DNA of 21,363 nt, taken from assembly GCA_009602735.1 (NCBI GenBank), contig WELA01003305.1, forward strand, positions 199,752 to 221,114, given 5' to 3'. Of the stretch, positions 3 through 20,869 are shown piece by piece. This DNA comes from Mesotaenium endlicherianum (lineage: Eukaryota). The translations under genes were made by a program, and so were the position numbers. Numbering within the stretch: the first letter of the stretch is position 1; the number at the start of each line of letters is the position of its first letter. The notes under the pieces were generated by a model that worked only from the letters and a program-made list of their open reading frames with translations, was not told the origin of the DNA and made no database searches.

Positions 3-1012
3 TCCAAGTGGATCGAGCTTGTGCCTTTGCCCAGCAAGGCCAGTGAGGGGATCGCTCAGGCCTTCCTTGATCAGGTCCTTAGCCGCTTCGGTGGCTGCGC
101 AGAAGTGCTGACCGACCAGGGCAAGGAGTTCCAGGGCTGCTTCCAGACGCTACTGGAGCGCTCTATGATCGACCACCGCACCACCTCCCGCGATCACCCA
201 CAGGCTGACGGCCTTGCAGAGCGCATGGTGCAGACCGTCAAGCTTGGGTTGTGGAAGTACTGTCTTGCCCACGACAGCACCCACTGGGACGACGCACTCC
301 CGTGGCTGGCCATGGGGTACAGGTTCAGAGAGCAGGCCTCATTGGCCTCGCATTCTCCCTACTTCCTCCTCTACGGCCGCCAGCCAGTCCTACCCGCAGC
401 AGCCAGGATCGTGGCCAAGAACGTCGTGGACTTGGACAGTCCCGAGACGTGGAGCGCTCTTATCGGGCAGCGTGCTCAGCTCTTTCAGCGCCTGATGCCC
501 ATGGCCATGGATAAGCTCGGCATTGCACAGCATCGCAATACGCTAAGGTATGCCATGACTCGTGGAGGAGCCTATCGTCCTCGGGTGTTGCAATTTTCCG
601 CAGGTGACTTTGTGTACCTGCGACGCCAGACGAAGAACACCCTCGACACCAGCAGCTCGCCAGTCGTCCTGCGCGTCAAGCGCGTCTTACCCACAGGTGT
701 GCTGGAGCTGGAAGGCGCAAATGGCCGTCTTCACAAGGACCACACGAAGAACTGTGTGGACCATGCCATCTTCCAAACCTTGACTCGCAGGTCCGTCCCC
801 ACAACGCGCGGCCGCCCAAGGACTGGGCGTGCCAGATCTGCCACAGCCCTGGCCAGGAGGCCAATATGCTGCTCTGCGACAGCTGCAACCTCGGCTTCCA
901 CATCAGCTGCCTCGACCCTCCGCTGGCCCGCGTGCCCGCAGGAGACTGGTTTTGCTATGGCTGCTCTGAGTTGGCCTTAGGCAGCAATCACAGCTCATCA
1001 GCTAGAGGCTGA
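3..1012 (+). pseudogene. Gypsy integrase C-terminal part plus PHD finger, frameshift near 755-760
   Basis: SKWIELVPL, TDQGKEF, HPQADGLAERMVQT (DDE core). After the shift the frame reads PCHLPNLD...CQICHSPGQEANMLLCDSCNLGFHISCLDPPLARVPAGDWFCYGC (C4HC3 PHD, 830-964), with stop TGA at 1010-1012. Confidence 0.9.
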
Positions 1013-1025
1013 GAGCTGGGGGGGG
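1013..1025 (+). promoter_or_regulatory. Putative polypurine tract of element A
   Basis: GAGCTGGGGGGGG directly after the integrase stop and directly before the first repeat copy. Confidence 0.6.
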
Positions 1026-1163
1026 AATTAAAACATTTGACGCTTGACTCCCTTTTTGGCCTATAAAGCCATTTGTATTATAGACTTCATTGCAGCAAAG
1101 CCTGCTTGTCCATTGTGTGTTGCTTATGTCGACAATGCGCGCCCGATCTCTTAACGCACGACA
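1026..1163 (+). repeat. Terminal repeat B1 of element A (138 bp)
   Basis: Direct repeat of 2174-2311 with about 7 mismatches. Starts AATTAAAAC and ends GCACGACA. Confidence 0.92.
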
Positions 1164-1165
1164 GC

Positions 1166-2173
1166 TGTCATGATTTATTGAGTCGAGGTTGTCGCACAAA
1201 GCCGAGCTCCACATGTGTGAACCATCAACCTAGGAAGGCCGACTTTGCATAGACTTTACGCATCCATACGTTGACCTTTTCTCAATTTCCAAGTCATTAA
1301 AGTGTACGCGTCGAGTCACCTTCCGAATGGCACCGGGTTCGCGTCATTTGGTCAAGTATCGAGCGAGATATGAGCGATCTAGTCCGCGTCACCTATCGGC
1401 CCCTAGCGGATCCTCACCAAAGGGCAATTTGTGTTTCAATGTGCCCAAGGGACACATTCTTGCCTATTCGTGACCCCCTAAAACCCCCAGCTTGTGCGCA
1501 CAAATCCGCGAGCTCCTAGAGCACACATACCTTGCATTTCCATAGTATAAGTGCATCATTGAGGCTATAACTAGGTGACTGCATCAACTACGCCTAGAGG
1601 AAGCTTCCTCAAATTTTCGATCTTCGTTTGAGGTGCTATCTAGGTAGAATCACCCAAGGTAAGCTCCACCAATGAGAGACACATAGCATATTCTACATGC
1701 CTTGCTTTGATTGGATTGAGTTATGCTTAGCCTATAGGAGTGCTAGTACATGCCTTGTACACATTAGTGGACATAGAGAGCCTCCTAGAGGGACTAGATG
1801 CATTGGACTCGCCGCAGACCCCGGCGGATTTCCAGGAGTATAAGTACCAGAGATGTCCCTAGAGAGACATCTTTTTAGAAGTCCATTATGCCAGATGTAA
1901 GTAACAGAGATTATCAGTAAAGCTTACACCTTTATCTCTAGTGTGTTTTCAGGACCTCTTAGTTACTCTCTTGTGAAGAGCAAGCCCTCCTGGCTTCCAG
2001 TCACTTGAAGAACTTCACAAGTGGTGAGCAAAATCACAGCTTAAATCCTTGCATGGAACCACTTTTGAAGATCATGATGTGCTTCTAGTGATATTTTGGG
2101 CCATACTTCATTAGTTGTTTTCTTACCAGTTTTACAATTTTGAGGTGCCCACTCTGGAGAGTACACACTCCTT
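1166..2173 (+). repeat. Putative A segment (copy of the element's 5' terminal region) between B1 and B2
   Basis: Starts TGTCATGATTTATTG...TGTCGCAC, resembling the 5' terminus of element B (TGTCGCGACTATTATCC...TGTCGCAC). Non-coding, with TATAAG at 1839 and AGTAAA at 1916. Confidence 0.6.
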
Positions 2174-2311
2174 AATTAAAACATTTGACGCTTGACTCCC
2201 TTTTTGGCCTTTAAAGCCATTTGTATTATAGACTTCATTGCAGCAAAGCCTGCTTGTCTATTGTGTGTTGCTTATGCCAACAATGCGCACGTGATCTCTT
2301 AACGCACGACA
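2174..2311 (+). repeat. Terminal repeat B2 of element A (element 3' end)
   Basis: Direct repeat of 1026-1163. Its final CA abuts the interrupted RT gene. Confidence 0.92.
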
Positions 2312-2469
2312 GTGGTTCTACAAATCTCCTCCTTAGTAAAAGCAAACATCTTGCGGTGTTTCTTCAGCAACCTTTCTACTTGTGCTCTCTGCTGGGCTGA
2401 GACCATTTTTCCAATGGCAAAAGTCTCAGTTTCAGGTTGCTTCTCCCCAGCAAAGGCATCCAGTAGTTG
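2312..2469 (-). pseudogene. N-terminal stub of RT-RH-IN frame, copy 1
   Basis: QLLDAFAGEKQPETETFAIGKMVSAQQRAQVERLLKKHRKMFAFTKEEI, matching the start of the 1010-aa ORF of copy 2. Confidence 0.88.
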
Positions 2470-2472
2470 CTA
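2464..2472 (-). promoter_or_regulatory. Putative stop-codon readthrough signal UAG-CAA-CUA, copy 1
   Basis: In-frame TAG followed by CAACTA (CARYYA consensus). Identical in copy 2. Confidence 0.7.
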
Positions 2473-4323
2473 TTCCTTGGGTGCAGGTTGGGGCTTTTTG
2501 CCCTCATCCTGGCCCTCAGGCTTTTTTGCCTGATTCTGGCTCTCAGGCTTTTCTGCCTGATTCTTAGGAGGTGGGGTAGCAGGCTTTGCAGCTTGCTCCT
2601 CCGTTGCCAAAGGCTTTGCAGCCTGTTTCCTAGGCTTTTTGCCTTTCCTAATGACGCGTCGCCTCTCCTGCGGTGAGGTGTACGTCAGGCGCCTCCGGAT
2701 GGGTTGCCTCAGGAACATTTCCTCGTCGACTGCAGTCCAACTGGTCCCGGTTCCTCCTTCTTCACGTGGCCGAGGTTGGTTTGCCATTGGCCAACTTGCA
2801 AGATCTGTCCTAGGGCTGATTACCCAGCCCCACTCTTGCTCAATATTAGCCATGCGGGCGACGGTCGTGCCATACTCCTCCCTTGCGGGTGGTGTGACCG
2901 TCCATGCCTGCGTCAACGTTTGCGGCCTTTGAGGTGCCGCTAGTTGTGCGAGGAAAACATCATCTGCTGCGGTCAAGCGGCTGATGGTGTTCCCCAGATC
3001 CATCAGTTCCCATTCTGGGATTGCAGGTGTCATGGGAGCAGGTGCCTCCGACCTCTGCATCCTAAGATTTGATAGTTGCAACAAGGGCGTGTTCATGCCT
3101 GGCGGCACACTCATGCCCAGTGCCATTGCCCTGCGGATCAAGCCGTCCTCTCCCTCTCTCTGCAGAATATCCCGCAGAGGTGGAGGAGGTGGGGCTGTGG
3201 TTCCTCGCGGAACGCCCTCTCTCTGAGCCTTCCCCTTATGCTTGAAATATCGCTTTAGCATCCTCCTAAAAGATGCGTTACTCTCATGGGCCACCTACCT
3301 TGGTTTGCTTGCGCGACCCTCGGGCTTACCTTGCGCTGCCTCCACTTTAGCAGTGCAGGCAGTCACCTCCTGCCGTTGTGGCGATCGTGCGGTTGACTTG
3401 GGCTCTGCCACTGGAAGACTGGCAATAGGGGTACTGGATGTTGGTGACCTTAATTCTTCATAAATGTCTGCCGAGCTTGGCCCCATTAGGTGGTCAGCTA
3501 CCCAGTGGTCTGTCCTCAAAACCTGTAAGTCAAGCAGATTCAACTCTGGCGTGGGAAAACGTGGAATTTCTTCCCTGGCTTCCTCTCCATTGATGAGTGA
3601 TGGCAACTCAAACTCTGAGAGGCCTTGCATCTCTGCATCCTCTCCCACCTCCGGCTTCTCTGTTCCAGGAGGCGGCGATTCTTCATCCCCTCCTGTGTTG
3701 AGCCTCGCCATGTTGATGATGGCTGACTGTAGAGCGCGAGCTAATTTCGCCACTTTCTCTTCCTTGAGTCGAGGGGCGTCTGCTTCCAGCAACTGCTCCA
3801 TGATTTGCCTGGTGATCGACTCAGCTGTGCTCCCAACTGTGTCTTGTGGTTGCCCTTTGGCCTCTAGCTCTGGGCTCATCAGAACAAGTGTGGCGGGCAA
3901 TGTCTCGATCGTCTTCTTCCTGCGTTCTTCAAAATCACCTCCGGGCATGGTCTTCCCAGACCCTCCAGAATTTCTTGAATTCTGACTGCATTCTTTGGCC
4001 CATTCGCCAATATTGCACTGCCGTTCTTCATATCTTGATGTTACCGCTTCTGGGGATGGGCTCCCAAAGACCTGGTCTGGGGCCATGTTTCGTAACTCAG
4101 AACTGGTATAATCTTCCCATTCCGGCATCCTCCCAACTACCTGGCTGGAGCGTTTTGCAGATGCTGGGACCTCCTGTGATTTGCTTGCTGCAGCGCTCGC
4201 GAAAGGGTTTGCTTCACCAATTGCCTGGTCTTCCATGGCTACGTCTTCCCGCAGCCTTTGCAACTTTCTTTCCAGAGGGTCGTGTAGAGCCGTCATCCGA
4301 TTGTCAATTTGTGCCAGTAGGTC
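2470..4323 (-). pseudogene. Low-complexity P/E/S/K-rich polyprotein linker of unknown function, copy 1
   Basis: ORFs 3295-4296 and 2470-3294 are in one frame, split by TAG where copy 2 has AAG. They are also in frame with 4324-5154. Confidence 0.75.
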
Positions 4324-5615
4324 TTAACACCTGGTCAGCTCAACCACTCTGGTTTCTCTGAGTGCTTCACCTTGGTCAGCCTCAGCTGCGTCCCTTTCAA
4401 CACCATATTCTTCTTGTTGCTGATGCGCTTCCTTGATAGCTCTCTGATCAGAGATTGGCACCACATGGACTCCAATCGTTACTGGTCTCGGCCTGGGCAT
4501 AGGCTTGTCAAAGATTGTCATCTGCTGCCAAGTCATAATCGTCTCCAGCAACCACGTCATGGAGTGATGCCCAATCATATTGCCGAATATCTTCCCAGCG
4601 TCGTCCTGTCCCACCATCGCAACGATTTCTTGTGCAATGGAGTTGGGTACCCCCAGGCACCTTCCCTTCCCTTCAGCTGTCGGCTCTCTCCACTGAGCTT
4701 CTCTGTCGTGCGCATTCTTCACCATACTTGGTCCTCCATTCACGAATGCGCGTGATCCTGGGTATGCTGTGAAGGTGGGCAGCACCACCTTTGGCAGGCC
4801 TGGCTCGTTGACGACGTACTGTGGGTAGGAATCCCTCCTGATCACTGGCTTGGTTTCCACCAACAGTGCTTCTCCCACAGATACTGCCGTTGGTGTGCGC
4901 CGCGTAATCTCCTCCATCTCCCTCAGGATTTCAATGGACATGCCGTTGGTCCAGAATAGTCTGGCCTGGTGTGAGAGTCCTCCGTGCCTGGCGTCGTTGA
5001 TCAATACATGATGACCCAGGGTGGAGTCAAAGACCAGCCATGGATCTCCTTGCTTCATCTGGTTGTAATTCATCCCTGGATGTACATTCTCAATCACAAA
5101 CACTGGTGGGTAGAGATGCTGGCGTTCCCGCGGCATACCGATGATTTCCACCAACCATCCTCAGTGTTGTGCTCCCCGGGTCATTGAATCCCCTCCTGTT
5201 CCCAGTTTGCGAGAAAGGTTGACAAGGAATCCCGCAAAAAATCCAGTCAATCCTATAACCATACAAGTCCTCAGACTTCACATCGAGAATGTTTCCTCCA
5301 GCAAGACGCACCAAACTAGTAGGCACCAACGCCTTGAAATGGTACATTTGCCGCATCTGACTCTTGACCTCCTTAAATGCTGAAAGCACTCTCATCATTG
5401 TCCACATACAGCACTTTTGGTACCTGGATACCCTGCTGAATCAGTGAGATGGTTCCAGAACCAAGTCCGGCAAACAACTCCAGCACTACTACTCCTCTCC
5501 TGCGAAAAGGATCTTCCATCCTCACAATGCCTTGCGGCAGCGGGTCTACTCCATGCATCAAATTGGCAGTAGACTTAACTGCATAAGGAACTTGGCAGCA
5601 GCTCTTGCGGGCCAC
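4324..5615 (-). pseudogene. C5 cytosine DNA methyltransferase domain, frameshifted, copy 1
   Basis: ELFAGLG (I), GIPCQPFS (IV), IENV (VI), HQARLFW (VIII) and FGNM (X) are spread over three frames. Confidence 0.88.
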
Positions 5616-6657
5616 GGTCCCTGTTACTCACAGCCTCTAGTTGCTCCATAATCCAAGGTTGCCAAACCAAGGGAGTCGGCATGTTGATGCTGGTGTAGAT
5701 CTTCTCTTCGTGTTGCATGATGAGGTCATAATGGTCTGGATACTGGTCATTCACACAGCAGTCTAGCAGTCCGTAGTTTGCTTCTCCTGAGCAAACCATT
5801 TTTACAGGAATTTCTCCTGTCGGCTGCCGATCTGTCGACTGGTAAGTCACCCTCTGCTTCCGCAGGTCGATGACCATACCCAGGGGAATCAGGGCTTCTG
5901 TCCCCAAGAGAACATCATAGTTCTCTGCCTCTGTCACCGTGCATTTTATGGGCAGTGACGCCTCCTCAGGTTTCCCCAAGTTTATTGTGATTTTCACAGG
6001 CTTGCGGGTGATTCCACAAGACTTTAAAATCTGCCCAGATGCAGTCCTCAACTGAAAAGAAATTTCTTTCAGGTCCCTTGCCGTCAATCCCAGAGCTTTC
6101 ACAGCTCGCTTTCCCAAGATTACTGGCTGTGCGCCATTGTCCAATAGGATATTGGGAGCGGCCCAGTTGTTAAACGTCAAAACTCTATCCTTGTTCTGCA
6201 CTCTCACAGTGCTGAAATTAGTAGGCAGCGAAGCGCTGTTCGCGCCTTCCTCAGCATGGTCCAGCTGCTGTCCGGCTTCTTCAACCGTGAAAGGATACGT
6301 AAGACGCAGATCAACGAGTGAAAGACAAGGAATATGCTGAATCCGGTGTTCCACCAGAGCCTTCAGCTTCTCCAGCGAAAAACTAAATGTCTTGCGTGGC
6401 TCAGGCTTGGCTTGTCGTAGCTGCGCAATCTCGTTCTCATCGAGAGTGATCCAAAAGGTCTGAGGAAGCTTCTCAGCATTCCTTGGAACCAGACGGTCAT
6501 GATCTGCGCGCTCCGCAGCCGTTGCAGCCACGGCCTTCTCAGACGTCAGCTTCTCACCTTTGCAGACGGTCTTTTCGGCCACATCTGCATCATAATAGAC
6601 ATTAGGCACATTTAGTCTTGCAAATTGAGCTTTCAACTCTGCAATCTCTGCACTCAT
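5575..6657 (-). pseudogene. Retropepsin aspartic protease region, copy 1
   Basis: ILLDNGAQ (DTG in copy 2) and DVLLGTEAL. Confidence 0.85.
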
Positions 6658-8299
6658 AGCATCATACTTCTGGTTACCCTTTGGGTTACCAAATTTATCT
6701 TTTCCTTTTTCTTACCCTTATCTGCCTCTTTCGTGGCAGCATTAGCCCATGGTGGCTTCAGATTTGGGTTCTTGGACCAACACTCATCTTCTGAGTGTCC
6801 CTTTTTGCTGCAATGTGCGCATACCTGCGCCTTGCTAGCAGACAATTGCTTAGCATCCGGGTACGGACAATCTCTCTTTTGATGTCCCGATTTCCCGCAA
6901 TTCCAAGAGCCCTCTTCTGTCTCAGCAGTGTTGGCGTGCTTAGCAAACCTATTGAAAGACCCGCTCTTTTTCTTAAACTGAAAATTAGAGCTATTGGCCT
7001 TAGGCTGAAAGGATTCCTCCTTTCTCTCAGGAGCCATAAGCGTCCTGGAAGCCTCCTTGTACCAGACTTTACCTTCCTCGACATTGCGTGCTATTTCAGC
7101 AGACTCGTTGATGTTCCAATCGATTCCGCGTTTTGCAGATAGGTGCGGCCTGACCTCCCGATCTGTGTCTTTACCCAAACACAATAAGAATTTGTCAGCC
7201 ACAATCCTAGGCTCATAGATTCCTGCCTTCTTGGCAAGGTCTACCAATTTGGATTTGACCTCCATCACTGTCTCGTTCTTCTGACGGACAAAATGCACAT
7301 AGCGGTGCACCTTAAGACTGCGATCCTCTGGGAATTTTGCTTCAAGCAACTTAAAGAAACGACGCAGACAGTGCTCAGAGTCTAACTGGTCATCCCCAGC
7401 CTCCATATCCCTACGGCAACTAGCCAATGCTTGCGCATGGCTTGCTTTNCGCATGGCTTGCTTCGTGGTGGCACTATCACCATGCTACCCTGTAAAAGGT
7501 GCAGCCCTACGTGTTACTTATTCGTGAGCATTAGCAATCTTTTCAGACAATTCTGCACACACTTTACGCAATTCTGCGACAGACCCAGCATCATCATCTC
7601 GAGTAGCCGCTCGCTGCTGACCCTCGGTGAGTTGCTTCATGGCATCTGTTAATTCTTGTGTTAGTGCAGCTAAGTCTATGCTCTCAACAGGTGCAGCAGG
7701 TATCGCTCTTCCTGATGACAAAGCGGACAGGCGGGCTTTCGCAGCCTCTTTCTGAATTTTAATATCCCTCGCCTTCTTTTGCTCGTCAAACGCCCATTCC
7801 TGGGTAAGGTTCTCATCCTTCTGGAATTGGCCATAAAGCAACAAGGCATCCTTGTCCAAGTACTGAACCAAGCTTATAAAGCGAAAGACTGAGTGTAAGA
7901 AGAATCCTTTTGGATTCTCTCAAAGAAGTCAGCCCAATAGATCTCATCAAACTCTTCGAAAGTGAGACTATTTCCACCGGTTCGTCCACTAAAACACTTT
8001 GTAGACAGCTTGAACTTAGGATTTTCATCCTTATCATCACCAGTCATTTCGAACGGTGACCAAGACTCACTATCTTTACCCCACACGTCGTGCTCTCTGC
8101 CCAAATTGGGTACAAAGGCTTGCGCGTTATACGGATTCTCACCGTTCGTGGCAGTATGGCAAGACTCGTCTCCGGACGGTTGCTCACTCCACAGGTTATC
8201 CGTGCGCTCTGATGTCTCACTTCCTCGTGGACTCTGGCTTGAATCAGAACCTTCCGCAGGCTCCACAGGGTAGTAGAGTCTTCCACTCCTCAACCGCAT
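6654..8299 (-). pseudogene. gag: Gag with zinc knuckles, frameshifted, copy 1
   Basis: MRLRSGRLY start and CAHCSKKGHSEDEC knuckle. The first knuckle has C-to-S. The frame is broken near 7875, 7518 and 7449. Confidence 0.82.
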
Positions 8300-8908
8300 G
8301 TACAGTTGAATTTCTCCGGATCCCCTTCCAGGTTGAGCACCGGCAGCCCTCACAGGCCTCAATCCCCAATTTGCTTGGGAATTTCTATTCACCTGAATTA
8401 CAGAACCGAGGTTCTCAGAAGTAGGATGGAAGTCTCTTACTTCCACATAGGCTTTATGCCTTAAGGTTCTTGGGTTCACAGGCGAGCAAATTGTAGTTTG
8501 CAAAACACTCTAAGCAGCTTGACATACAACGTCAGATTCAGAGAAAATCGCCCTTCAGGCTTTCGCTTAACTTTCACAAAGTCACAGCTTACAAAACTCT
8601 GAAACTACACGTCTATGCTGGCCTGGGTCAAGCTCTTCACTTAACACCGCGCCTTAACAGTTCTTCACTGCCAGGCTAGGCTCACTCATTTCTTCACTGA
8701 GAGCCTTATCTGCCAATACTACCCTCTCTCTTCGAGATGCGAATGCGACTTCTAAGAACCTGGAAACTAACACACAACTCATCATTTTAAGGCTGCTTCA
8801 CACACACTTGTGGCGTTCGGCCAAATCTGTGCTAATCTCCTAGCAGATTCTATTCTGCAGTTTTCCTACTTTCAACAGTGAGATTCCCTTTTGGGAACTC
8901 CTACAATC

Positions 8909-9127
8909 CTAACTTATCTTCGATACACTAAGAAGAATCTTCAGCGTCGGCAGAAGCGTGGGGCCTCGGCTCTCCAATGGCCTTGGGAACTCCTTCTTCT
9001 TCTTCGCGCCCTTCTTCTCCTTCCTTCTGCTCTTTCTGCTCCTTCTGCTTCTTGGCAAAAGTGCGTGAGAGTGAATAACATGTCTCAGGCAAGATTCGTG
9101 CCTTCCGCAGGCACCACACAGCGTCAT
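8909..9127 (-). CDS. Possible small Cys/His- and Lys/Arg-rich upstream ORF, copy 1
   Basis: ATG start, CGACGRHESCLRH, basic tract. The frame is open in both copies. Confidence 0.25.
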   Translation of the reverse strand: MTLCGACGRHESCLRHVIHSHALLPRSRRSRKSRRKEKKGAKKKKEFPRPLESRGPTLLPTLKILLSVSKIS

Positions 9128-9723
9128 CTTTCGAGAATGGCGTGCTTAGTCACAAAGCTTAGCTTCATGTCGCTTCTTCCTAGCCATGCTCAACTCAAAC
9201 TCGTAGTCACTCGGCATGCATGCACACCTCGTGACTGTCGCTTCTCAGCTGGCAGTCACGCCTAATTGGCTCGTGGCTAAGAACTCCTGAGCGGCGTGTA
9301 CAAGCAAATGCCCCTTGCTCAAGATTCCCAACCGGGCGGCCGTAACCTATCTTGGCATTGCGGCCATGACCTGGCTTAATCTGCCAGTCACACAGTATCT
9401 GACTTGGTACCTGCTGGGCAACTCATCACTGATCCCCAACTTCTAGCCTCGCGGCTGTCTATGATGTCAAAACCTCCCCCATCCCTGGGTGTGGGGCACA
9501 TTGACATTGACCCCTTGCCAGTGGTCTTGACGCCGACATAACCACTGACTGCGACGTAATCAGTCAAGTGGTCGGTGAGTCAACGTTGACTTTCCGAACC
9601 TGGATGGCCGTAGCTTGCGCTGCGTGTGCGGCACCGTCAAACGGATAGTAGTCGCGACACCAATTCTATACCGTAGTATATACCTACCTCTATTATATTC
9701 TACCACATTAATTAATATATCTC

Positions 9724-9727
9724 ATCA
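9724..9727. repeat. 4-bp target site duplication ATCA (left)
   Basis: ATCA|TGTCGTG at 9724-9734 and CGCGACA|ATCA at 20288-20298. Confidence 0.75.
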
Positions 9728-10023
9728 TGTCGTGCCTAACAGTGTCGGTCCCTCGGCACGTGCGTAGCCTTCCAGCACGTGTGCCTTCGGCCTGGTTGAT
9801 GTGTCGGTGGCCCTCCTGACGTGTGGCAGACATGGTCGATCGACCTTTGCACGTGTGTTGGTGACAAGCCTTACCAGGGTTAACCCATCCCTGGGTTCCT
9901 GAACTTGCACCATGCAGCCTTGACCAACACTCAGGGTGACGTTCTCTGTCACCCGGCTCTCACCATCTGCTTATCCTAAGACTTTAGCAGAAAATTTTAA
10001 AAAATACTTGCCTTGCCTTAATT

Positions 10024-10044
10024 CCTCTTACACCCTTCCCTTTC
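10024..10044 (-). promoter_or_regulatory. Putative polypurine tract of element B
   Basis: Minus strand GAAAGGGAAGGGTGTAAGAGG, overlapping the integrase stop and followed by AATTAA as in element A. Confidence 0.6.
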
Positions 10045-13000
10045 AGCTGAGGCGTCCCTGCCTTTCCTGCTGAAAGCTATTATTTTCCAGCCCTGCGGCT
10101 AGGGGTTTAGGAAGGCAATCAGGACATTCCCATCGTCCTGCCATAATTTCTTCCTCGCCAATGCAGAAAGTGTGCCAACGGGCACCACACTCGTCGCAAG
10201 TTACCATTGCTTCCTGATCGTCCAGCACTTTGCACCTGGCACAAGGCGTGGCCGGCACCAATTCCTCGGGCACCACCCTAACTGTGGGATCAATATTCGG
10301 CAAATGGCATAGCGAGCAATTCTGCACGTGGTCTCTCATGGTTTTACCATCAAAACCTTCCAGTTCTAACACACCATTGTCAAACGCATGTTTCACGCGC
10401 AAGATCACTGCACCTGAACTGGTGTCGATGGTGGTCTTGGTCTGGCGCTTGCGGTAGACAAAGTCTCCTTCTTGTATCCGCGTCATCTGCAGGCGGTAGC
10501 TCCCGTCTCGCGTCCTAGCGTAACGTTGCGTATCTCTTTTCTGTGCAATTTTCAGATTGACTAGTGCAGCCGGTATCATGCGTTCAAATAACGCCTTACG
10601 GCGCACCATCACTTTTAACAGTTCATCAGGGCTGTCCAGGTCTTTCACCTGTTCAATCTCCTGCTTGATGCTGCTGGGCACTACTGGACTTCTGCCAAAC
10701 AGTATCTGATATGGCGAGTAATTTGCCAAGGCAGCCTGCTTGCTAAATCTGTAACCCATAACCAGCCATGGCAGGGCTAGATCCCAGTCACGCTTGTCAT
10801 GCTCAAGGCAAAACTTGCGCAAAGCAGACTTAATGGTTTGCACCATCCTTTCTGCCAGACCATCTGCTTGCGGATGATCTCTAGACGTAGTGCGATGATC
10901 GATGAAGCATCTGTCCAAGAGTTTCTGAAAAGACCCTTGGAACTCAGACCCTTGGTCTGTCAGCACTTCTGCTGGAGCTCCATGACGCACAATCACACCA
11001 TTGAGGAATGCTTCCGCGGTCCCTAGGCTTTCCTTAGCAGTCAGAGGGACAACCTCTATCCACTTAGAGAAATGCTCAATCATGACCATGATATACTTGT
11101 TACCTTGCTTAGACAGCGGTAGCTCACCTGCGAGATCGCAGCTCCAACGGTAACCTAGGCCCATGATTGGCAAATGTTGCAAGTGTAGGTGTTGCTGCGT
11201 AAAACCAGCCTTGACGCGATCACAGCTTTGGCAAGCCTTGATCACATCTTCACACTGCTGCTTCATGCCCCTCCACCAGTAAGACAGCTCCAAAAGACTA
11301 TATGTCTTCTTGACACCATAGTGTCCAGTGTTCTTGTGCATTTCTTGCACAAGGGCTCGTCCTTTGATGGGTTCTGGCACTAACTTCTCCTGACCAGTTT
11401 CTTCAATTCTGAAGAGGTTGTTGCATTTCCAGCAAAACCTTTTAGCTCGATGGTTTACCTGGTCCTTCTCCTTCACTGATAGTCCTTCCAAGTGAGTTCC
11501 CGTCTTAAGCCAGTGCATAGTAGCTTGATCTTTCCAGATCTCTGTACTGAACAGGGGTAGAGGCTCAGCTTCACCTGATGCTACTATTCCAGCCATTTCG
11601 GCTAGGCAAGCCACCAACTCTGCTGGGCTGCTCGGGTCTTCGTCCTCTCGAGCTCCTGTTCTGTCGTCTGAAGATGGGTCTGGGTTCCTGCTGAGTCCAT
11701 CGGCGTCGTTGTTGAGCACTCCTGCTCTGTGCACCACCGTCATTTGGTACTCTTGCAGCTTAAGAGCCCAGCGAGCCAACTTACCAGTGAGGTCTCCATT
11801 CTTCATCAGCCATAGTAATGGTGAGTGATCCGTGATCAGTGTGAAGGGTCTTCCCCACAGATACTCTCTGAAGTGTGTGACCGCCCAAACCACTGCCAGC
11901 AGCTCTCCTTCATAGGACGAGTAGTTGCTCTCCGCTCGATTGTTAGAGCGTGAGGCATAGGCAATGACATACTCCTCTCTAGGGCTTGTGGCCTGAGTGA
12001 GTACTGCGCCAATTCCCACACGACTCCAGTCAGTGTGCATATTGAACGGTTTGGAGTAGTCAGGCGTTCGCAAGACTGGGGCTGTTACCAGCCGCTTCTT
12101 AAGCTCGTTCATGGCTTTCTCCTGAGCTTCTGTCCACACAAAAGGTACATCCTTTTTCAGGAGTTCCGTAAAGGGTTTAGCAATTCTGCTATAATCCTTC
12201 ACAAACTTACGATAGTATCCGCTTAGCCCTAACAGAGCTTTCAGCTTAGACACATTCGCAGGTGCAGGTATCTTGTAAATAGCCTCAGTCTTCACAGCCT
12301 GAGGGGACATAGCATTGTTCCCAATCTCATGTCCTAGGTAAGGCACGTGTGCCTCAAAGATTTTGCACTTCCCAGGATGCAGCTTCATCTGGAATTTCTC
12401 CAGGCGCTGGAACACTTGTTCCAAGTGCTCGAGGTGCTCCTCTATGGACTTGCTGAATACTACCACATCGTCTATGTATGGCTTAGCGAAATCCAGCCCC
12501 TCTAGCACTTTATCCATAGTCCTCTGAAATATGGCTGGGGCATTTTTCAGCCCAAATGGCATTACTGTCCATTGCCAAAGTTCCCTTTGAGCCCAAAAAG
12601 CAGTTTTACCTCGATCTTCTGTTTTCACAAGGATCTGGTTGAAGCCTTGGCGCAGATCGATAATGCTGAACACCTTTCCGGTGGTGGCAATTACAAAGAT
12701 CCGTTCCGGCGTAGGCATCACATAGCTATCCGGCTCCGTGTAGAGATTCAGTCGCCTGTAATCTCCACACATACGAGTGGCAGTGTAATTGCCGGCCTCG
12801 TCCTTTTTAGTGACTACTATTGTAGGAGCTCCATGTATTGAGGTAGATTTTTCAATCATGCGGAGCTTATGCAGCTCTTCACAAGTGTTCTCCACACAGT
12901 CCCATTCTGTCTGACTGAGCTTATGCGGCCCTAGTCTGATTGGGTTATCAGTAGTTAGTGTGATCTCACACGCACTGGCAGTGGTTCCACCAATCTCCTC

Positions 13001-13138
13001 CTTAGTGAAAGCAAATACCTTGCGGTGTTTCTTCAGCAACCTTTCTACTTGTGCTCTCTGCTGGGCTGAGACCATTTTCCCAATGGCAAAAGTCTCAATT
13101 TCAGGTTGCTTCTCCCCAACAAAGGCATCCAGTAGTTG
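10043..13138 (-). CDS. pol: Pol: reverse transcriptase - RNase H - DDE integrase - PHD finger (open frame)
   Basis: RT: CGDYRRLN, IDLRQGFNQI, MPFGLKNAP, YIDD (about 12467-12478). RNase H: TDWS, YEGELLA, TDH, DADGLSR. Integrase: H-H-C-C, CDLAG, TDQGSEF, AERM. PHD C4HC3 at 10115-10243. First ATG at 13075, but the frame is open from 13138. Confidence 0.96.
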   Translation of the reverse strand, partial: QLLDAFVGEKQPEIETFAIGKMVSAQQRAQVERLLKKHRKVFAFTKEEIGGTTASACEITLTTDNPIRLGPHKLSQTEWDCVENTCEELHKLRMIEKSTSIHGAPTIVVTKKDEAGNYTATRMCGDYRRLNLYTEPDSYVMPTPERIFVIATTGKVFSIIDLRQGFNQILVKTEDRGKTAFWAQRELWQWTVMPFGLKNAPAIFQRTMDKVLEGLDFAKPYIDDVVVFSKSIEEHLEHLEQVFQRLEKFQMKLHPGKCKIFEAHVPYLGHEIGNNAMSPQAVKTEAIYKIPAPANVSKLKALLGLSGYYRKFVKDYSRIAKPFTELLKKDVPFVWTEAQEKAMNELKKRLVTAPVLRTPDYSKPFNMHTDWSRVGIGAVLTQATSPREEYVIAYASRSNNRAESNYSSYEGELLAVVWAVTHFREYLWGRPFTLITDHSPLLWLMKNGDLTGKLARWALKLQEYQMTVVHRAGVLNNDADGLSRNPDPSSDDRTGAREDEDPSSPAELVACLAEMAGIVASGEAEPLPLFSTEIWKDQATMHWLKTGTHLEGLSVKEKDQVNHRAKRFCWKCNNLFRIEETGQEKLVPEPIKGRALVQEMHKNTGHYGVKKTYSLLELSYWWRGMKQQCEDVIKACQSCDRVKAGFTQQHLHLQHLPIMGLGYRWSCDLAGELPLSKQGNKYIMVMIEHFSKWIEVVPLTAKESLGTAEAFLNGVIVRHGAPAEVLTDQGSEFQGSFQKLLDRCFIDHRTTSRDHPQADGLAERMVQTIKSALRKFCLEHDKRDWDLALPWLVMGYRFSKQAALANYSPYQILFGRSPVVPSSIKQEIEQVKDLDSPDELLKVMVRRKALFERMIPAALVNLKIAQKRDTQRYARTRDGSYRLQMTRIQEGDFVYRKRQTKTTIDTSSGAVILRVKHAFDNGVLELEGFDGKTMRDHVQNCSLCHLPNIDPTVRVVPEELVPATPCARCKVLDDQEAMVTCDECGARWHTFCIGEEEIMAGRWECPDCLPKPLAAGLENNSFQQERQGRLS

Positions 13139-13141
13139 CTA
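13133..13141 (-). promoter_or_regulatory. Putative stop-codon readthrough signal UAG-CAA-CUA, copy 2
   Basis: TAG at 13139-13141 is in frame with pol, 21 codons before the ATG at 13075, in CARYYA context. Confidence 0.7.
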
Positions 13142-15040
13142 CTCCTTAGGTGCAGGTGGGGGCTTCCCGCCCTCATCCTGGCCCTCATGCTTTTCTGCCT
13201 GATTCTGGCTCTCAGGCTTTTCTGCCTGATTCTTAGAAGGTGGGGTAGCAGGCTTTGCAGCTTGCTCCTCCGTTGCCATAAGTTCGGCAGCCTGTTTCTT
13301 AGGCTTTTTACCTTTTCCAATGACGCGTCGCCCCTTGCGGTGAGGGGTATGTCAGGCGCCTCCGGATGGGCTGCCTCAGGAACATTTCCTCGTCGATTGC
13401 AGTCCAACTGGTCCCGGTTCCTCCTTCTTTACGTGGCCGAGGTTGGGTAGCCATTGGAAAACCTGCGGGGTCTGTCCTAGGGCTGATCGCCCAGCCCCAT
13501 TCTCGCTCAATAATAGCCATGCGGGCGACGGTCGTGTTATACTCCTCCCTTGCGGGTGGTGTGACCATCCATGCCTGCGCCAATGTTTGCGGCCTTTGAG
13601 GTGTTGCTAGTCGTGCGAGAAAGGCATCATCTGCTGCGGTCAAGCGGCTGATGGTGTTTCTCTGATCCATCAGTTCCCATCCTGGGATTGCAGGTATTAT
13701 GGGAGCAGGCTCCTTCGACCTCTGTATCCTAAGATCTGATAGTTGCAACAAGGGCGTGTTCATGCTTGGCGGCACACCAATGCCCAATGCCATTGCCCTG
13801 CGAACCAAACCGTCCTCTCCCTCTCTCTGCAGAATATCCCGCAGGGGCGGAGGAGGTGGGGCTGTGGTTCCTCGCGGAACGCCCTTTCTTTGAGCCTTCC
13901 CTTTATGTTTGAAATATCGCTTTAGCATCCTCCTAAAAGATGCGTTACCCTCACGAGCCTCCTTCCTTGGTCTGCTTACGCGACTTTCGGGCTTTCCTCG
14001 TGCTGTCTCCACTTTAGCAGTGCAGGCAGTCACCTCCTGCTGTTGCGGCGATTGTGCGGCTGACTTGGGTTCTGCCACTGGAAGACTGGCAGAAGGAGAA
14101 CTGGATGTTGGCGACCTTAATTCTTCATAAAGGTCTGCTGGGCTTGGCCCCATCAGGTGGTCAGCCACCCAGTCGTCTGTCCTCAGCTCCTGTAAGTCAA
14201 GCAGATCCAACTCTGGCGTGGGAAAACGTGGAATTTCTTCCCTAATGTCCCCTTCATTGTTGAGTGATGGCAACTCCAACTCCGAGAGGCCTTGCATCTC
14301 TGCATCCTCTTCCTCCTCCGGCTTCTCTATTCCAGGAGGCGACAATTCTTCATCCCCTCCTGTGTTGAGCCTCGCCATGTTGATGATAGCTGACTGTAGA
14401 GCGAGAGCTGCTTTTGCCACTTTTTCGAGGGGCGTCTGCTTCCAGCAACTGCGCCATGATTTGCCTGGTGATTGACTCAGCTGTGCTGCCAACTGTGTCT
14501 TGTGGTTGCCCTTTGGCCTCTGGCCCTGGGCTCATCCGAGCAAGTGTGGCGGGCAATCTCTTGGCCGCCTCCTTCTTGTGTTCTTCAAAAATCACCTCCA
14601 GGCAAATGGTCATTCTAGACCCTCCAGAATTTCCTGAATTTTGACTGCATTCTTCGGCCCATTTGCCAATATTGCACTGGCGTTCTTCATATCTTGATGT
14701 TACCGCTTTTGGGGATGGGCTCCCGGAGACCTGGTCTGGGGCCATGTTTCGTAACTCAGAACTGGTATAATCTTCCCATTTCGGCATCCTCCCAACTACC
14801 TGGCTGGAGCGTTCTGCAGATGCTGGGACCTCCTGTGATTTGCTTACTGCAACGCTCACCAAAGGGTTTGCTGCACCAGTTGCCTGGTCTTCCATGGTTA
14901 CATCTTCTCGCAGCCTCCGCAACTCTCTTTCTAGAGGGTCGTGTAGAGCCGCCATCCGAGTGTTAATTCACGTCAATATGTCTTGACACCTGGTCAGTCC
15001 CACCACTCTGGCTTCTCTGAGTGTTTCCTCTTAGTCAACC
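13139..15040 (-). pseudogene. Low-complexity linker region, copy 2 (frameshifts and stops)
   Basis: Homologous to 2470-4380. Indels near 13333, 14425 and 15050, and stops near 14968 and 15031. Confidence 0.75.
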
Positions 15041-17752
15041 TCAGCTGCGTCTTTCAACAGCATATTCTTTTTGTCGCTGATACGCTTCCCTCATAGCTCT
15101 CTGATCAGAGGTTGGCACCACATGAACTCCAATCGCTACCGGCCTCGGCCTGGGCATAGGCTTGTCAGAGAACGTCATCTGTTGCCAAGTTATAATCGTC
15201 TCTACCAACCATGTCATGGACTGATGCCCAATCATATTGCCGAACATCTTCCCAGCGTTGTCCTGTCCCACCTTTGCAACAATTTCTTGTGCAATGGAGC
15301 TGGGTACCCCCAGGCACCTTCCCTTCTCTTCAGCTGTCGGCTCTCTCCACTGAGCTTCTCTGTTGTGCACATCTTTGACCATTCCTGGCCCTCCATTCAC
15401 GAAAGCGCGTGATCCTGGGTATGCTGTGAAGGTGGGCAACACCATTCTCGGCCGGCCTGGCTTGTTGACGACGTACTGTGGGTAGGAATCCCTCCTGATC
15501 ACTGGCTTGGTTTCCACCAACAGTGCTTCTCCCACAGATACTGCCGTTGGTGTGCGCCGCGTAATCTCCTCCATCTCCCTCAGGATTTCAATGGACATGC
15601 CGTTGGTCCAAAATAGTCTGGCCCGGTGTGAGAGTCCTCCGTGCCTGGCGTCGTTGATTAATACATGATGACCCAAGGTGGAGTCGAAGACCAGCCATGG
15701 ATCTCCTGGCTTCATGTGGCTGTAATCCATCCCTGGATGTACATTCTCAATCACAAACACTGGTGGGTAGAGATGCTGGCGTTCCCGCAGCATAATGATG
15801 ATCTTCACCATCCTTCCCCAGTGTTGTGCTCGCGGGTCATTGAATCCCCTCCTGTTCCCAGCTTGCGAGAAAGGTTGACAAGGGAATCCCGCAAAAATCC
15901 AGTCAATCCTGTAATCATACAGGTCGTCAGACTTCACATCGAGAATGTTTCCTCCAGCAAGACGCACAACACTAGTGGGCACAAATGCCTTGAAATGGTA
16001 CATTTGCCGCATCTGACTCATGGCCTCCTCAAATGCTGTAATAACATTCTCATCATTGTCCACATACAGCACTTTGGATACTCGGATACCTCGCTGAATC
16101 AGTGTGATGGTTCCAGTACCAAGTCCGGCGAACAATTCCAGCACTACTATTCCTCTCCTGCGAAAAGGATCTTCCATCCTCACAATGCCTTGCGGCAATG
16201 GGTCTACTCCAGGCATCAAATTGGCAGCAGTCTTAACAGGATAAGGAACTGGCAGCAGCTCTTGCGGGCCACGGTCCCTGTTACTCACAGCCTCTAGTTG
16301 CTCCATAATCCAAGGTTGCCAAACCAAGGGAGTCGGCATGTTGATGCTGGTGTAGATCTTCTCTTCGTGTTGCATGATGAGGTCATGATGGTCTGGATAC
16401 TGGTCATTCACACAGCAGTCTAGCAATCCGTAGTTTGCTTCTCCTGAGCAAACCATTTTTACAGGAATTTCTCCTGTTGGCTGCCGATCTGTCGACTGGT
16501 AAGTCACCCTCTGCTTCCGCAGGTCGATGACCATACCTTGGGGAATCAGAGCTTCTGTCCCCAATAGAACATCATAGTTTCCTGCCTCTGTCACCGTACA
16601 GTCTATGAACAGTGACGCCTCCTCAGGTTTCCCCAAGTTTACTGTGATTTCCACAGGCTTGCGGGTGATTCCACAAGACTTTGAAATCTGCCCAGATGCA
16701 CTCCTCAACTGGAAAGGACTTTCTTTCAAGTCCCTGGCCGTCAATCCCAGAGCTTTCACAGCTCGCTTTCCCAAGATTACTGGCTGTGCGCCAGTGTCCA
16801 ATAGGATATTGGGAGCGGCCCAGTTGTTAAACGTCAAAATTCTATCCTTGTTCTGCACTCTCACAGTGCTGAAATTAGTAGGCAGCGAAGCGCTGTTCGC
16901 GCCTTCCTCAGTTAGGTCCAGCTGCTGTCCGGCTTCCTCAATCGTGAAAGGATATGTAAGACGCAGATCAGCGAGTGAAAGACAAGGAATGTGCTGAATC
17001 CGGTGTTCCACCAGAGCTTTCAGCTTTTCCAGCGAAAGACTAAATGTGTTGCGTGGCCCAGGCTTGGCTTGTCGTAGCTGCGCAATCTCGTGCTCATCGA
17101 GAGTGATCCAAAAGGTCTGAGGAAGCTTCCCAGCATTCCTTGGAACCAGACGGTCATGATCTGCGCGCTCCGCAGCCGTTGCAGCCACGACCTTCTCAGG
17201 CGTCAGCTTTTCGCCTTTGCAGACGGTCTTTTCGGCCACATCTGCATCATAATAGACATTAGGCACATTTAGTCTTGCAAATTGAGCTTTCAATTCTGCA
17301 ATCTCTGCACTTATAGCATCATACTTCTGATTACCCTTCCGGTTACCAGAGTTATCTTTCTCCTTTTTCTTAGCCTTATCTGCCTCTTTCGTGGCAGCAT
17401 TAGCCCATGGTGGTTTCAGATTTGGGTTCTTGGACCAACACTCATCTTCTGAGTGTCCCTTTTTACTGCAATGTGCGCATACCTGCGCCTTGCTAGCAGA
17501 CAATTGCTTAGCATCCGGGTACGGACAATCTCTCTTCTCATGTCCTGATTTCTCGCAGTTCCAACAGCCCTCTGCTGTCTCAGCAGTGTTGGCGTGCTTA
17601 GCAAACCTATTGAAAGACCCGCTCTTTTTCTTAAACAGAAAGTTAGAGCTATTGGCCTTGGGCTGAAAGGATTCCTCCCTTCTCTCAGGAGCCATAAGCG
17701 TCCTAGAAGCCTCCTTGTACCAGACTTTACCTTCCTCGACATTGCGTGCTAT
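15041..17752 (-). CDS. Polyprotein segment: two CCHC knuckles, aspartic protease, C5 cytosine methyltransferase (about 15200-16150)
   Basis: CWNCEKSGHEKRDC, CAHCSKKGHSEDEC; LLDTGAQ; ELFAGLG (I), AGFPCQPFSQAG (IV), IENV (VI), HRARLFW (VIII), RCLGVP (IX), FGNM (X). Confidence 0.93.
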   Translation of the reverse strand: MARNVEEGKVWYKEASRTLMAPERREESFQPKANSSNFLFKKKSGSFNRFAKHANTAETAEGCWNCEKSGHEKRDCPYPDAKQLSASKAQVCAHCSKKGHSEDECWSKNPNLKPPWANAATKEADKAKKKEKDNSGNRKGNQKYDAISAEIAELKAQFARLNVPNVYYDADVAEKTVCKGEKLTPEKVVAATAAERADHDRLVPRNAGKLPQTFWITLDEHEIAQLRQAKPGPRNTFSLSLEKLKALVEHRIQHIPCLSLADLRLTYPFTIEEAGQQLDLTEEGANSASLPTNFSTVRVQNKDRILTFNNWAAPNILLDTGAQPVILGKRAVKALGLTARDLKESPFQLRSASGQISKSCGITRKPVEITVNLGKPEEASLFIDCTVTEAGNYDVLLGTEALIPQGMVIDLRKQRVTYQSTDRQPTGEIPVKMVCSGEANYGLLDCCVNDQYPDHHDLIMQHEEKIYTSINMPTPLVWQPWIMEQLEAVSNRDRGPQELLPVPYPVKTAANLMPGVDPLPQGIVRMEDPFRRRGIVVLELFAGLGTGTITLIQRGIRVSKVLYVDNDENVITAFEEAMSQMRQMYHFKAFVPTSVVRLAGGNILDVKSDDLYDYRIDWIFAGFPCQPFSQAGNRRGFNDPRAQHWGRMVKIIIMLRERQHLYPPVFVIENVHPGMDYSHMKPGDPWLVFDSTLGHHVLINDARHGGLSHRARLFWTNGMSIEILREMEEITRRTPTAVSVGEALLVETKPVIRRDSYPQYVVNKPGRPRMVLPTFTAYPGSRAFVNGGPGMVKDVHNREAQWREPTAEEKGRCLGVPSSIAQEIVAKVGQDNAGKMFGNMIGHQSMTWLVETIITWQQMTFSDKPMPRPRPVAIGVHVVPTSDQRAMREAYQRQKEYAVERRS

Positions 17753-18943
17753 TTAAGCAGCCTCGTCGATGTTCCAGTCGATTCCGCGTTTCGCAAATAG
17801 GTGCGGCCTGACCTCCCGATCTGTATCTTTACCCACACACAATAAGAATTTGTCAGCCACAATCCTAGGCTCATAGATTCCCGCCTTCTTGGCAAGGTCT
17901 ACCAATCTAGATTTGACCTCCATCACTGTCTCGTTCTTTTGACGGACAAAATGCACATAGCGGTGCACTTTAAGACTGCGATCCTCTGGGAATGTTGCTT
18001 CAAGCAATTTAAAGAAACGACGCAGACAGTGCTCAGAGTCTAACTGGTCATCCCCAGCCTCCATATCCCTACGGCAAATAGCCAATGCTTGCGCATGGCT
18101 TGCTTCCGTGGTGACACTATCACCATGCTGCCCTGTAAAAGGTGCAGCTCTGCGTGTTACTCGTTCCTGGGCATTAGCAATCTTTTCAGACAATTCTGCA
18201 CACACTTTACGCAATTCTGCGACAGACCCAGCATCATCATCTCGAGTAGCCGCTCGCTGCTGACCCTCGGTGAGTTGCTTCATGGCATCTGTTAATTCTT
18301 GTGTTAGTGCAGCTAAGTCTACGCTCTCAACAGGTGCAGCAGGTATCGCTCTTCCTGATGACAAAGCGGACAGGCGGGCTTTCGCAGCCTCTTTCTGGAT
18401 TTTCAAATCTCTCGCCTTCTTTTGCTCGTCAAACGCCCATTCCTGGGTAAGGTTCTCATCCTTCCGAAATTGGCGATACAGCAACAAGGCATCCTTGTCC
18501 AAGTACTGAACCAAGCTTATAAAAGCGACTGACTGAGTGTAAGAAGAATCCTTTCGGATTTTCTCAAAGAAGTCAGCCCAATAGATCTCATCAAACTCTT
18601 CGAAAGTGAGACTATTTCCACTGGTTCGTCCACTAAAACACTTTGTAGACAGCTTGAACTTAGGATTTTCATCCTTATCATCACCAGTCATTTCGAGTGG
18701 TGACCAAGACTCACTATCTTTATCCCACACGTCGTGCTCTCTGCCCGAATTGGGTACAAAAGCTCGCGCGTAATACGGATTCTCACCGTTCGTGGCAGTA
18801 TGGCGAGACTCGTCTCTCGACGGTTGCTCACTCCACAGGTTATCCGTATGCTCAGATGTCTCACTTTCTCGTGGACTCTGGCTTGAATCAGAACCTTCCG
18901 CAGGCTCCACAGGGTAGTAGAGTCTTCCACTCCTCAACTGCAT
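17753..18943 (-). pseudogene. gag: Gag N-terminal/capsid region, copy 2, cut from the downstream ORF by one nonsense codon
   Basis: First ATG at 18943 (MQLRSGRLY). TAA at 17753-17755 corresponds to GAA in copy 1, and the frame is the same as 15041-17695. Confidence 0.82.
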
Positions 18944-19546
18944 GTACAGTTGAATTTCTCCGGGTCCCCTTCCAGGTTGAGCACCGGTAGCCCTCACAGG
19001 CCTCAATCCCCAATTTGCTTGGGAATTTCTATTCACCTGAACCACAGAACCCAGGTTCTCAGAAGTAGGACGGAAGTCTCTTACTTCCACATAGGCTTTA
19101 TGCCTTAAGGTTCTTGGGTTCACAGGTGAGCAAATTGTAGTTTGCAGAAATCACACTCTAAGCAGCTTGACATGCAACGTCAAATTCAGAGAAAATCGCC
19201 CTTCAGGCTTTTGCTTAACTTCCACAAGTCAGCTTACAAAACTCTGAAACTACGTCTATGCTGGCCTGGGTGAAGCTCTTCACTTAACACCGCGCCCTAA
19301 CAGCTCTTCACTGCCAGGCTGGGCTCACTCAGTTTTTCACTGAGAGCTTTATCTGTCAATACTACTCTCTCTCTTCGAGATGCGAATGCGACTGCCGAGA
19401 ACCTGGAAATCAACACACTACTCACCATTTTAAGGCTCCTTCACACACACACACTTGTGGCGTTCGGCTGACTCTGTGCTAATCTCCTAGCAGATTCTAT
19501 TCTGCACTTCTCCTTCTTCAACCGTGAGATTCCCTCTTGGGAACTC

Positions 19547-19753
19547 CTACAATCCTAACTTATCTCTGATACACAGAAGAATCTTCAGCGTTGTCAGAAG
19601 CGTGGGGCTTTGGCCCTCCAATGGCCTTGGGAACTCCTTCTTCTTCTTCGCGCCCTTCTTCTCTTTCCTTTTGCCTCTTGGCAAAGGTGCGTGAGAGTGA
19701 ATGACATGTCTCAGGCAAGATTCGTGCCTTTCGCAGGCACCACACAGCATCAT
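19547..19753 (-). CDS. Possible small Cys/His- and Lys-rich upstream ORF, copy 2
   Basis: MMLCGACERHESCLRH...KRKEKKGAKKKKE, homologous to 8909-9127. Confidence 0.25.
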   Translation of the reverse strand: MMLCGACERHESCLRHVIHSHAPLPRGKRKEKKGAKKKKEFPRPLEGQSPTLLTTLKILLCIRDKLGL

Positions 19754-20294
19754 CTTTCGAGAATGCCGTGCTTAGTCACACAAGTTAGCTGCATGTCGCT
19801 TCTGCCTAGCCATGCTCAACCCAAACTTGTAGTCATTCAGCATGCATGCACACCTTGTGACTGTCGCGCGTGACTGCTTAGCTTCTCAGCTGGCAGTCAC
19901 GCCTAATTGGCTCATGGCTAAGGATTCCTGAGCGGCGTGCAAGCAAATGCCACCTGCTCAAGTTTTCCCAACCGGGCGGCCGTAACCTATCTTGGCATTG
20001 CAGCCATGACCTGGCTTAATCTGCCAGTCACACAGTACCTGACCTGGTACTTGCTGGGCGGCTCATTGCTGATCCCCAGCTCCTAGCCTCGCGGCTGTCT
20101 TGTCAAAACCTCCCCCATCCTTGGGTGTGGGGCACACTGACATTGACCCCTTGCCAGTGGTCTTGACGCCGCCATAACCGCTGACTGCGATGTAATCAGT
20201 CAAGTGGTCGGTGAGTCAAGGTCGACTTTCAGCACTAGGTGGCCGTAGCTTGCGCTGCGCGTGCGACACCGTCAAACGGATAATAGTCGCGACA

Positions 20295-20298: not shown

Positions 20299-20869
20299 TC
20301 CTCATTAATTGTGAATTTCCCTAAGTTCAAACCTGATTTGCTCGAAGTCGGACGATCGCAGACCATAAAAAACTGGCCGCCTGCACGCGACGAGGCGCTG
20401 CACGCCTGTACGCAGACAACAGCAGACAACAGTGTACCACTCGCCACTCGCGATATATTCGTACATTACCGTACGAAACTTTGTTTGCCTCGGGCATTTT
20501 CACAGCATTCGCCACAAAATGGACGGCGTTTCAGGCTTCAGCCCATGCCTCTTGCCTCGTACTCGATCCTCACGTGGTCCCTTCGTGCATCTTGAACTCG
20601 CTGCATGCTTCTCTCAGCCCAAGAGTACGAATTTCAAGTTAAGGAACTTTGTTATCGCTCTAGAATCAATTGATATGCGTGCATTAGCACGCATCTATGC
20701 AAAAACCCAATTTTTATGAGAAGCTCCAAGCCATGTCGGGTCTAACCATTCTGGTGCTTTTGTGTAGCATCGTGATCTTTGCAATCTTGCCCATTCATGG
20801 AGTCAGCGACGATGGTAAGGCATTTCACGCCTTCGACACTCCTGCTATACTCGAAATCACTTCTCATAG

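Follow-up and report, generated by a model that had tools for sequence, protein, structure and literature searches.

Terminal sequences are carried as split direct repeats by TOC1, in the order A1-ORFs-B1-A2-B2, while in bacterial insertion sequences of the IS3, IS911 and IS30 type a DDE enzyme opens circles at abutted ends that are separated by a short spacer of fixed length. Split direct repeats are assigned by the account in PMC7192593 to the tyrosine-recombinase elements PAT and Ngaro. KnitGypsy-Dnmt3 of Klebsormidium nitens (de Mendoza et al. 2018, PMC5890265) combines Gypsy domains with a C5 methyltransferase in pol; its repeats are arranged DIRS-like according to the legend of Fig. 4c and follow the order A-coding-B-A-B according to the legend of Fig. 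1e. No seam sequence, target-site duplication (TSD) or primer site is given in the parts of that paper available to us, which describe neither a repeat-free form nor a mechanism, and the terms 'circular' and 'target site' are absent from its main text. Gypsy-7a_cRei of Chlamydomonas is described as having a PHD finger and LTR subparts, the term 'split direct' being unmentioned in the available part of the source (PMC9940879). Foamy virus and HIV-1 integrases are reported to cleave palindromic LTR-LTR junctions (PMC1180852, PMC1905944), with just two nucleotides lost between junction and provirus in foamy virus (PMC1180852); for retroviruses, linear DNA is described as the accepted precursor and the circle-junction route as rejected (PMC11054761). 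In Tf1/sushi and plant Tcn1 chromoviruses, self-priming is predicted instead of a tRNA primer site (PMC6317226). Troyka was rejected as a candidate relative, its termini being given as CG and its LTRs as ordinary in the available part of PMC12440569.

Here we show that a perfect palindrome, GACAGCTGTC, at positions 1160-1169 of the window (the whole 21,363-nt stretch of DNA that was analysed) is a conserved CA-2 nt-TG seam of two integration ends located inside a Gypsy-type terminal repeat. The att-att seam, GCACGACA-GC-TGTCATG (1156..1172, plus strand), was delimited from the sequence, from run contigs and from the same seam in relatives; it consists of GCACGACA (1156-1163), found again at 2304, the 2-nt spacer GC (1164-1165) and TGTCATG (1166-1172). 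A bare 10-bp palindrome is at chance level, with 19 perfect 10-mer palindromes in the window against 18.0 +/- 3.7 in 30 first-order Markov simulations, although GACAGCTGTC itself occurs only once. What departs from chance is its placement, because it joins the end of a recurring 138-nt segment to the 5'-start motif of the family.

The element carrying the seam, a member of what we term family P, occupies positions 1-2311 on the plus strand. Its 3' pol (3..980, plus strand; Pfam and translations) encodes the integrase core and then, in another frame, a PHD finger, with a frameshift near 755 between the two; Pfam reports rve on 3-977 (E 8.7e-7) and PHD on 611-1009 (E 1.1e-12), and INT-PHD are the sole family P domains within the window, the left end and A1 lying beyond it. 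Downstream on the same strand follow a polypurine tract (PPT), GAGAGCTGGGGGGGG (1011..1025), immediately 5' of repeat B1, just as a G-run abuts B1 in related loci; the 138-nt B1 itself (1026..1163), ending in GCACGACA, where contigs stop; the spacer; the 1008-nt repeat A2 (1166..2173), starting with TGTCATG and copying the 5' end of the element, as indicated by loose contig ends and by A1 equalling A2 in full-length relatives; and repeat B2 (2174..2311; sequence and repeat comparison), whose right terminus is again GCACGACA. B1 and B2 differ at 7 positions (95% identity). The start of B1 appears to be the start of the reverse-transcription LTR in family P, and a motif scan tentatively places a TATA-like motif at 1839 in A2. 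The palindrome is the conserved B1|A2 seam of a family P element of the form PPT-B1-GC-A2-B2 and not a chance neighbour.

The first-pass annotation had reported the palindrome and the lack of a TSD around 1166-2311, and the sequence confirms both: positions 1162-1165 read CAGC and 2312-2315 read GTGG. This absence is expected, because 1166-2311 did not insert on its own and the window does not reach the left end of the element. Breakpoint alignment places family P within the pol of a second element, M1, with the breakpoint at 2311/2312. In the region 2291-2315, the terminal 21 nt of family P resemble the target beside the insertion point in family M pol (12960-12984), and BLAST spans the breakpoint; the likeness may be fortuitous or may reflect either a preference for such targets or a recombination breakpoint, and because of it GTGG is not established as a TSD.

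Family P copies were assessed via run contigs and related loci only. Runs X1-X4 represent a single sample, from which the window itself may derive, the region examined around the seam was 1104-1223, and variants were listed from the 1% level. Contigs from three of four runs (X2, X5 and X15, with three organism codes and from three studies) span the seam, and among the pieces listed these show no alternative letter and no indel at 1% over positions 1155-1179; of the 23 pieces listed (beside 275 others), nine have at least 15 letters on each side of the seam and one satisfies a 31-letter rule. The fourth run, X11, supplies one piece only, which starts at 1166 and does not reach across. Other family P contigs stop at 1163 or start at 1166, and 22 X2 contigs carry unrelated loose sequence upstream of 1166 (agreement 0.38). 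Contigs crossing the seam, together with loose ends before 1166, indicate that the seam is present in several copies and that TGTCATG is also the 5' end of family P. The A|B joint (2166-2170 to 1026) is mostly of one length and reaches a summed depth of about 2000 in X1 and X3, two runs of one sample, which shows family P to be high-copy, summed contig depth being no copy number. Two RNA runs contributed 77 and 138 reads, whose small number and divergence precluded transcript-end mapping.

Integrase alignment was used to take the best 80 of 480 metagenome loci, corresponding to 59 distinct loci in 12 DNA-level families. As a loose seam regex returned many chance matches, it was replaced by B ends fixed by alignment. 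Excluding duplicate assemblies (which reduced 80 to 59), loci in which the end of B1 is incomplete or missing (e.g. L006, L009, L017), other families, and L088 and L089, 36 complete B1 ends were obtained in two large families, 16 running into A and 20 into unrelated flank. When offsets 0-5 were tested, B1 was followed by A at offset 2 in 16/16. Spacers were GC in four cases, AC in eight, GT in two and AT in two, types that could derive from C-to-T decay of GC in CAGCTG on either strand. The att-att composition first proposed for this locus (a 3' end, 2 nt and a 5' end) is constant over copies and families, with a CA-NN-TG spacer that is invariably 2 nt and a seam that is not unique to the locus.

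Both ends were visible in eight distinct metagenome relatives. Five (L003, L031, L044, L053, L079) have the layout A1-ORFs-PPT-B1-NN-A2-B2, and three (L016, L042, L072) are repeat-free, A-ORFs-PPT-B, the same form as a complete element, M2, in the window. A 4-bp TSD at the outer TG/CA is present in all eight (six exact, two with one transition) as well as in M2. In every case the 5' end is A without B, while the 3' end is either B or B-NN-A-B.

The seam is found in 8 of the 12 DNA-level families, and in the six besides the two aligned ones it lies downstream of the PPT. In these six, the motif that caught 6 of 7 loci presupposes a 2-nt spacer; when no spacer was imposed, a scan again retrieved 4/6, at spacer 2. 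It is also present in four of seven genome-bin contigs, two of them 41-42% alike in integrase, and is retained at 41-53% integrase identity between families whose adjoining repeats are unalignable. No seam was found downstream of the integrase in L014, L071 and L087; L036, L059, L085 and L086 contain little sequence there. No relatives were found among viral contigs. The genome-bin contigs (L081-L087) come from prokaryote bins and carry a eukaryotic retroelement with 37-49% integrase identity, probably through binning contamination. One of them, L081 (9285 bp), has identical 127-nt ends, and both L081 and L004 have the order B-NN-A-primer site-internal; these two were regarded as possible assembly collapse and were not counted as evidence of circles. 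At L032:3510-3985, B-AC-A is followed by unrelated sequence without B2, and at L002:1805-1929 part of repeat A occurs on the opposite strand directly past the B end, at the end of the contig.

Two family M elements lie on the minus strand of the window. M1 (2312..9659), delimited by BLAST to M2 and breakpoint alignment, has its 5' end, TGTCGCGAC, at 9659, is interrupted by family P and is 92% identical to M2 over 7.4 kb. M2 (9728..20294, 10,567 bp; termini, TSD, self-BLAST and Pfam) is whole and repeat-free and reads TGTCGCGAC...gag-PR-DNMT-unknown-RT-RH-INT-PHD-PPT-296 nt-GCACGACA, with TGTCG...CGACA ends and the TSD TGAT on both sides. Its PPT is at 10044-10024, 296 nt before the element end, and self-BLAST revealed no repeat of more than 15 nt within M2, which has no terminal repeat. 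The C5 methyltransferase is located after the protease (Pfam, E 5e-17), the best PDB match of M2 is Ty3 Gag-Pol (E 2e-93), and its integrase region has its top homologue in K. nitens (a protein of 46% identity), the few named homologues being from Klebsormidium, Haematococcus and Volvox, which makes a green-plant host likely. Open frames of about 1.7 kb between the methyltransferase ORF and RT (13308-14967, minus strand) match no Pfam family, and in L003 a single ORF encodes both methyltransferase and RT.

These elements are Ty3/Gypsy (Metaviridae) by their proteins but not by their structure, which lacks paired LTRs. The order PR-RT-RH-INT and a Ty3-like RT are found in M2, L003 and L053, and TG...CA termini with a TSD in the 4-6 bp range are found in M2 and 8/8 two-ended relatives. 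Two full direct LTRs are not present at the ends of integrated copies, and the PPT does not directly precede the TG of a 3' LTR, as B intervenes. The likeness to KnitGypsy-Dnmt3 includes a C5 methyltransferase within pol (M2, L003, L053) and A-ORFs-B-A-B repeats (the family P 3' end, L003, L031, L044, L053, L079). DDE integrases have a standard D-35-E spacing. The integrase triad is present in M2, and 34 residues lie between D and E in M2 and in family P; of 120 homologues 17 were unparsed, and 102 of the other 103 have the same number; this spacing (10043-13138, minus strand; 3-755, plus strand) is possibly a clade mark tied to an unusual substrate.

It had also been proposed that integration ends differ from reverse-transcription ends, and this agrees with the PPT and primer site, which mark other ends. 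In related loci the PPT or G-run abuts B1 rather than TG, which follows approximately 60-300 nt farther downstream. A tRNA-type TGG after A1 is absent in eight 5' ends. In family 1, the 15 nt at the end of A1 are complementary at 13-15 of 15 positions to a site lying 31-32 nt past a TATA box in 6/7 copies, compared to at most 10-12 in controls and 11 in L044; L081 and L004 have primer-site pairings of 13 and 16 bp with different sequences. The pairing at the A1 end is the signature expected of a self-priming site, for which it is a candidate. No such complement was found in L044, in L042, or within 1.4 kb of the 5' end of either M1 or M2. Given a PPT before B1 and a self-priming-type site after A1, the reverse-transcription LTR is likely B-GC-A, with the integration ends internal to it.

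The palindrome does not lie where two cDNA ends would meet, but between the PPT-defined start and the primer-site-defined end. The A2|B2 seam corresponds in position to the primer-site end plus the PPT end, and at 2173/2174 it would represent the end-to-end join of the cDNA. The LTR thus likely carries the palindrome as part of its template and renews it at each cycle, and the cDNA join is likely the non-palindromic A2|B2 seam. Of the circle junction originally suggested, the joined integration ends are retained; the palindrome is not, however, the ligation point of a circle, being carried within the LTR. Among 12 family-1 copies the A|B seam shows differences of 1-4 nt or deletions and, judged by eye, does not track the integrase tree, whereas in family 2 it is nearly constant (3/3 copies). 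Near constancy, in family 2 as in family P, allows precise ligation and inheritance alike. B2 is nearest to its own B1 in 7/11 copies (distance 0.097 within copies vs 0.149 among B2s) but not in the other 4/11, which counts against the reading favoured below. In L082, B1 and B2 are 100% identical, and A1/A2 and B1/B2 identities covary (92/94, 90/88, 88/86, 91/92, 85/86).

That the integrase makes its ends at the seam, a claim common to three readings of the data, is very probable. Of these readings we favour, with reasonable but limited confidence, one in which the integrase cuts the seam in circular cDNA and so makes the ends that it integrates. Self-primed reverse transcription would yield linear cDNA with B-GC-A as the LTR at each end, the true ends lacking TG/CA. 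A staggered integrase cut after CA, on both strands of CA-GC-TG, would leave a recessed CA-3' end on either side of the break, each with a 2-nt 5' overhang, as 3' processing does in retroviruses. If both seams of a linear cDNA, or one seam of a 1-LTR circle, were cut, the product would be the repeat-free A-ORFs-B; if the cDNA ends were instead joined (A|B) and the 2-LTR circle opened at the seam beside the primer site, A-ORFs-PPT-B-GC-A|B would result. Being unable to restore the promoter part, the former would be a dead end, and the latter, which alone keeps the promoter and a whole 3' LTR, would be the form that copies on. Alternatively, the repeat-free form could arise by B1-B2 recombination after insertion. 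On the stronger proposition, that this is a green-plant Gypsy lineage whose att sites have moved to mid-LTR and which multiplies only via end-joined circular cDNA opened by integrase like an IS-type circle junction, our judgement is evenly divided.

A symmetric 2-LTR circle is expected to give rise to a mirror product, A|B-GC-A-ORFs-PPT-B, as well. This form was found in 0/8 loci with a visible 5' end vs five of the other, an outcome of 1 in 32 if both were equally likely, which counts against a symmetric circle and would fit a one-sided jump of reverse transcriptase or an inherited B2. In the first case, reverse transcriptase would jump from the right to the left end of the cDNA via 1-3 nt of microhomology and recopy B-GC, after which the integrase would cut both outer seams, the molecule being linear or lariat-like and at no point a closed circle. 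End-jumping by reverse transcriptase occurs in other retroelements, would yield A-ORFs-B-GC-A|B without the mirror (5 vs 0), and is consistent with the AT shared by both ends at family-1 A|B seams; large seam deletions such as that in L044 look more like end-joining repair, and we consider this explanation unlikely, though a serious contender.

In the second case, a cycle of the PAT/Ngaro/TOC1 kind would operate with a DDE integrase: RNA would span A1 to B2, B2 and A|B would be inherited, and the inner B1-GC-A2 would act as the template that joins B2 to A1 in a circle opened by the integrase. Such a cycle predicts no mirror form and accommodates an A|B seam that is near constant in family 2 and family P, and the split-repeat order is that of PAT, Ngaro and TOC1, as far as PMC7192593 and PMC5890265 describe it. 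Set against this, the primer-site signature at the end of A1 and the PPT before B1 suggest priming of the ordinary LTR kind, by which B2 would not be copied, B2 follows its own B1 in 7/11 copies, and family-1 seam variants are scattered over the tree, making this cycle distinctly doubtful. Finally, although chance-level 10-base palindromes in the window and the TG...CA ends of 1166-2311 would suit a seam that is a relic and no substrate, i.e. an ordinary LTR (1166-2311) with an old 3' duplication or chance-adjacent insertions, this is barely credible given 5' ends of A only without B (8/8 loci), a PPT that abuts B1 rather than TG, a spacer of 2 in 16/16 and a seam that persists at 41-53% integrase identity amid unalignable repeats.

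Several known systems can be compared with these elements. Like PAT, Ngaro and TOC1, relatives here have the order A1-ORFs-B1-A2-B2, in which the joined ends are present as an internal copy; unlike them, they possess a DDE integrase (rve), TG...CA ends, a 4-bp TSD, a PPT and a primer site. Scans of 44 ORFs (8 from the window, 10 of 11 from L003, 14 of 20 from L053 and 12 from M2) gave no hit to a tyrosine recombinase, although a decayed one could escape such a search. The 2-LTR junction of foamy virus and HIV-1 is likewise a palindromic CA...TG, and its cleavage into processed ends is what we propose here; there, however, the palindrome forms where cDNA ends meet and serves a side route, whereas here it would be templated inside the LTR and be the sole route to ready ends. 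IS3, IS911 and IS30 are DNA transposons with a transposase-made circle, in contrast to the reverse-transcription cDNA envisaged here. A signature of the self-priming type predicted for Tf1/sushi and Tcn1 is seen in 6/7 family-1 ends, L004 and L081 and was not found in M1, M2 and L042; where those elements have ordinary paired LTRs and chromodomains, these have a PHD finger and a permuted repeat, and no chromo hit was obtained after the integrase in the scanned ORFs, the PHD finger being found there.

What had been described before is the DIRS-like repeat layout of KnitGypsy-Dnmt3, from one figure legend; in the literature within our scope, which lay outside Repbase and subscription journals and was available in part, we found no earlier description of the seam, the mechanism or the repeat-free form. 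If correct, the mechanism would mean that the ends used by a DDE retro-integrase are of its own making, through cleavage of a palindrome templated within the LTR, and that circles are productive intermediates and not dead ends; circle-junction integration would become testable in a natural system, and a route from LTR elements to split-repeat elements like PAT and Ngaro would be suggested. Were circles obligatory, these elements would realize in nature the circle-junction model that was given up for retroviruses, and split direct repeats would have arisen in them independently, with about half of the copies lacking any LTR. Because copies have no paired LTRs (20/36 3' ends are repeat-free), programs that search for LTR pairs would overlook a high-copy family or set its boundaries wrongly. 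The pairs A1/A2 and B1/B2 provide two clocks for insertion dating.

Two minor observations concern the surroundings of M2. M1 begins 68 bp past the 3' end of M2, in the same orientation and beyond an AT-rich spacer (9660-9727); this adjacency looks like two separate insertions rather than like a CA-NN-TG seam. The flank beyond M2 (20299-21363) contains several short ORFs.
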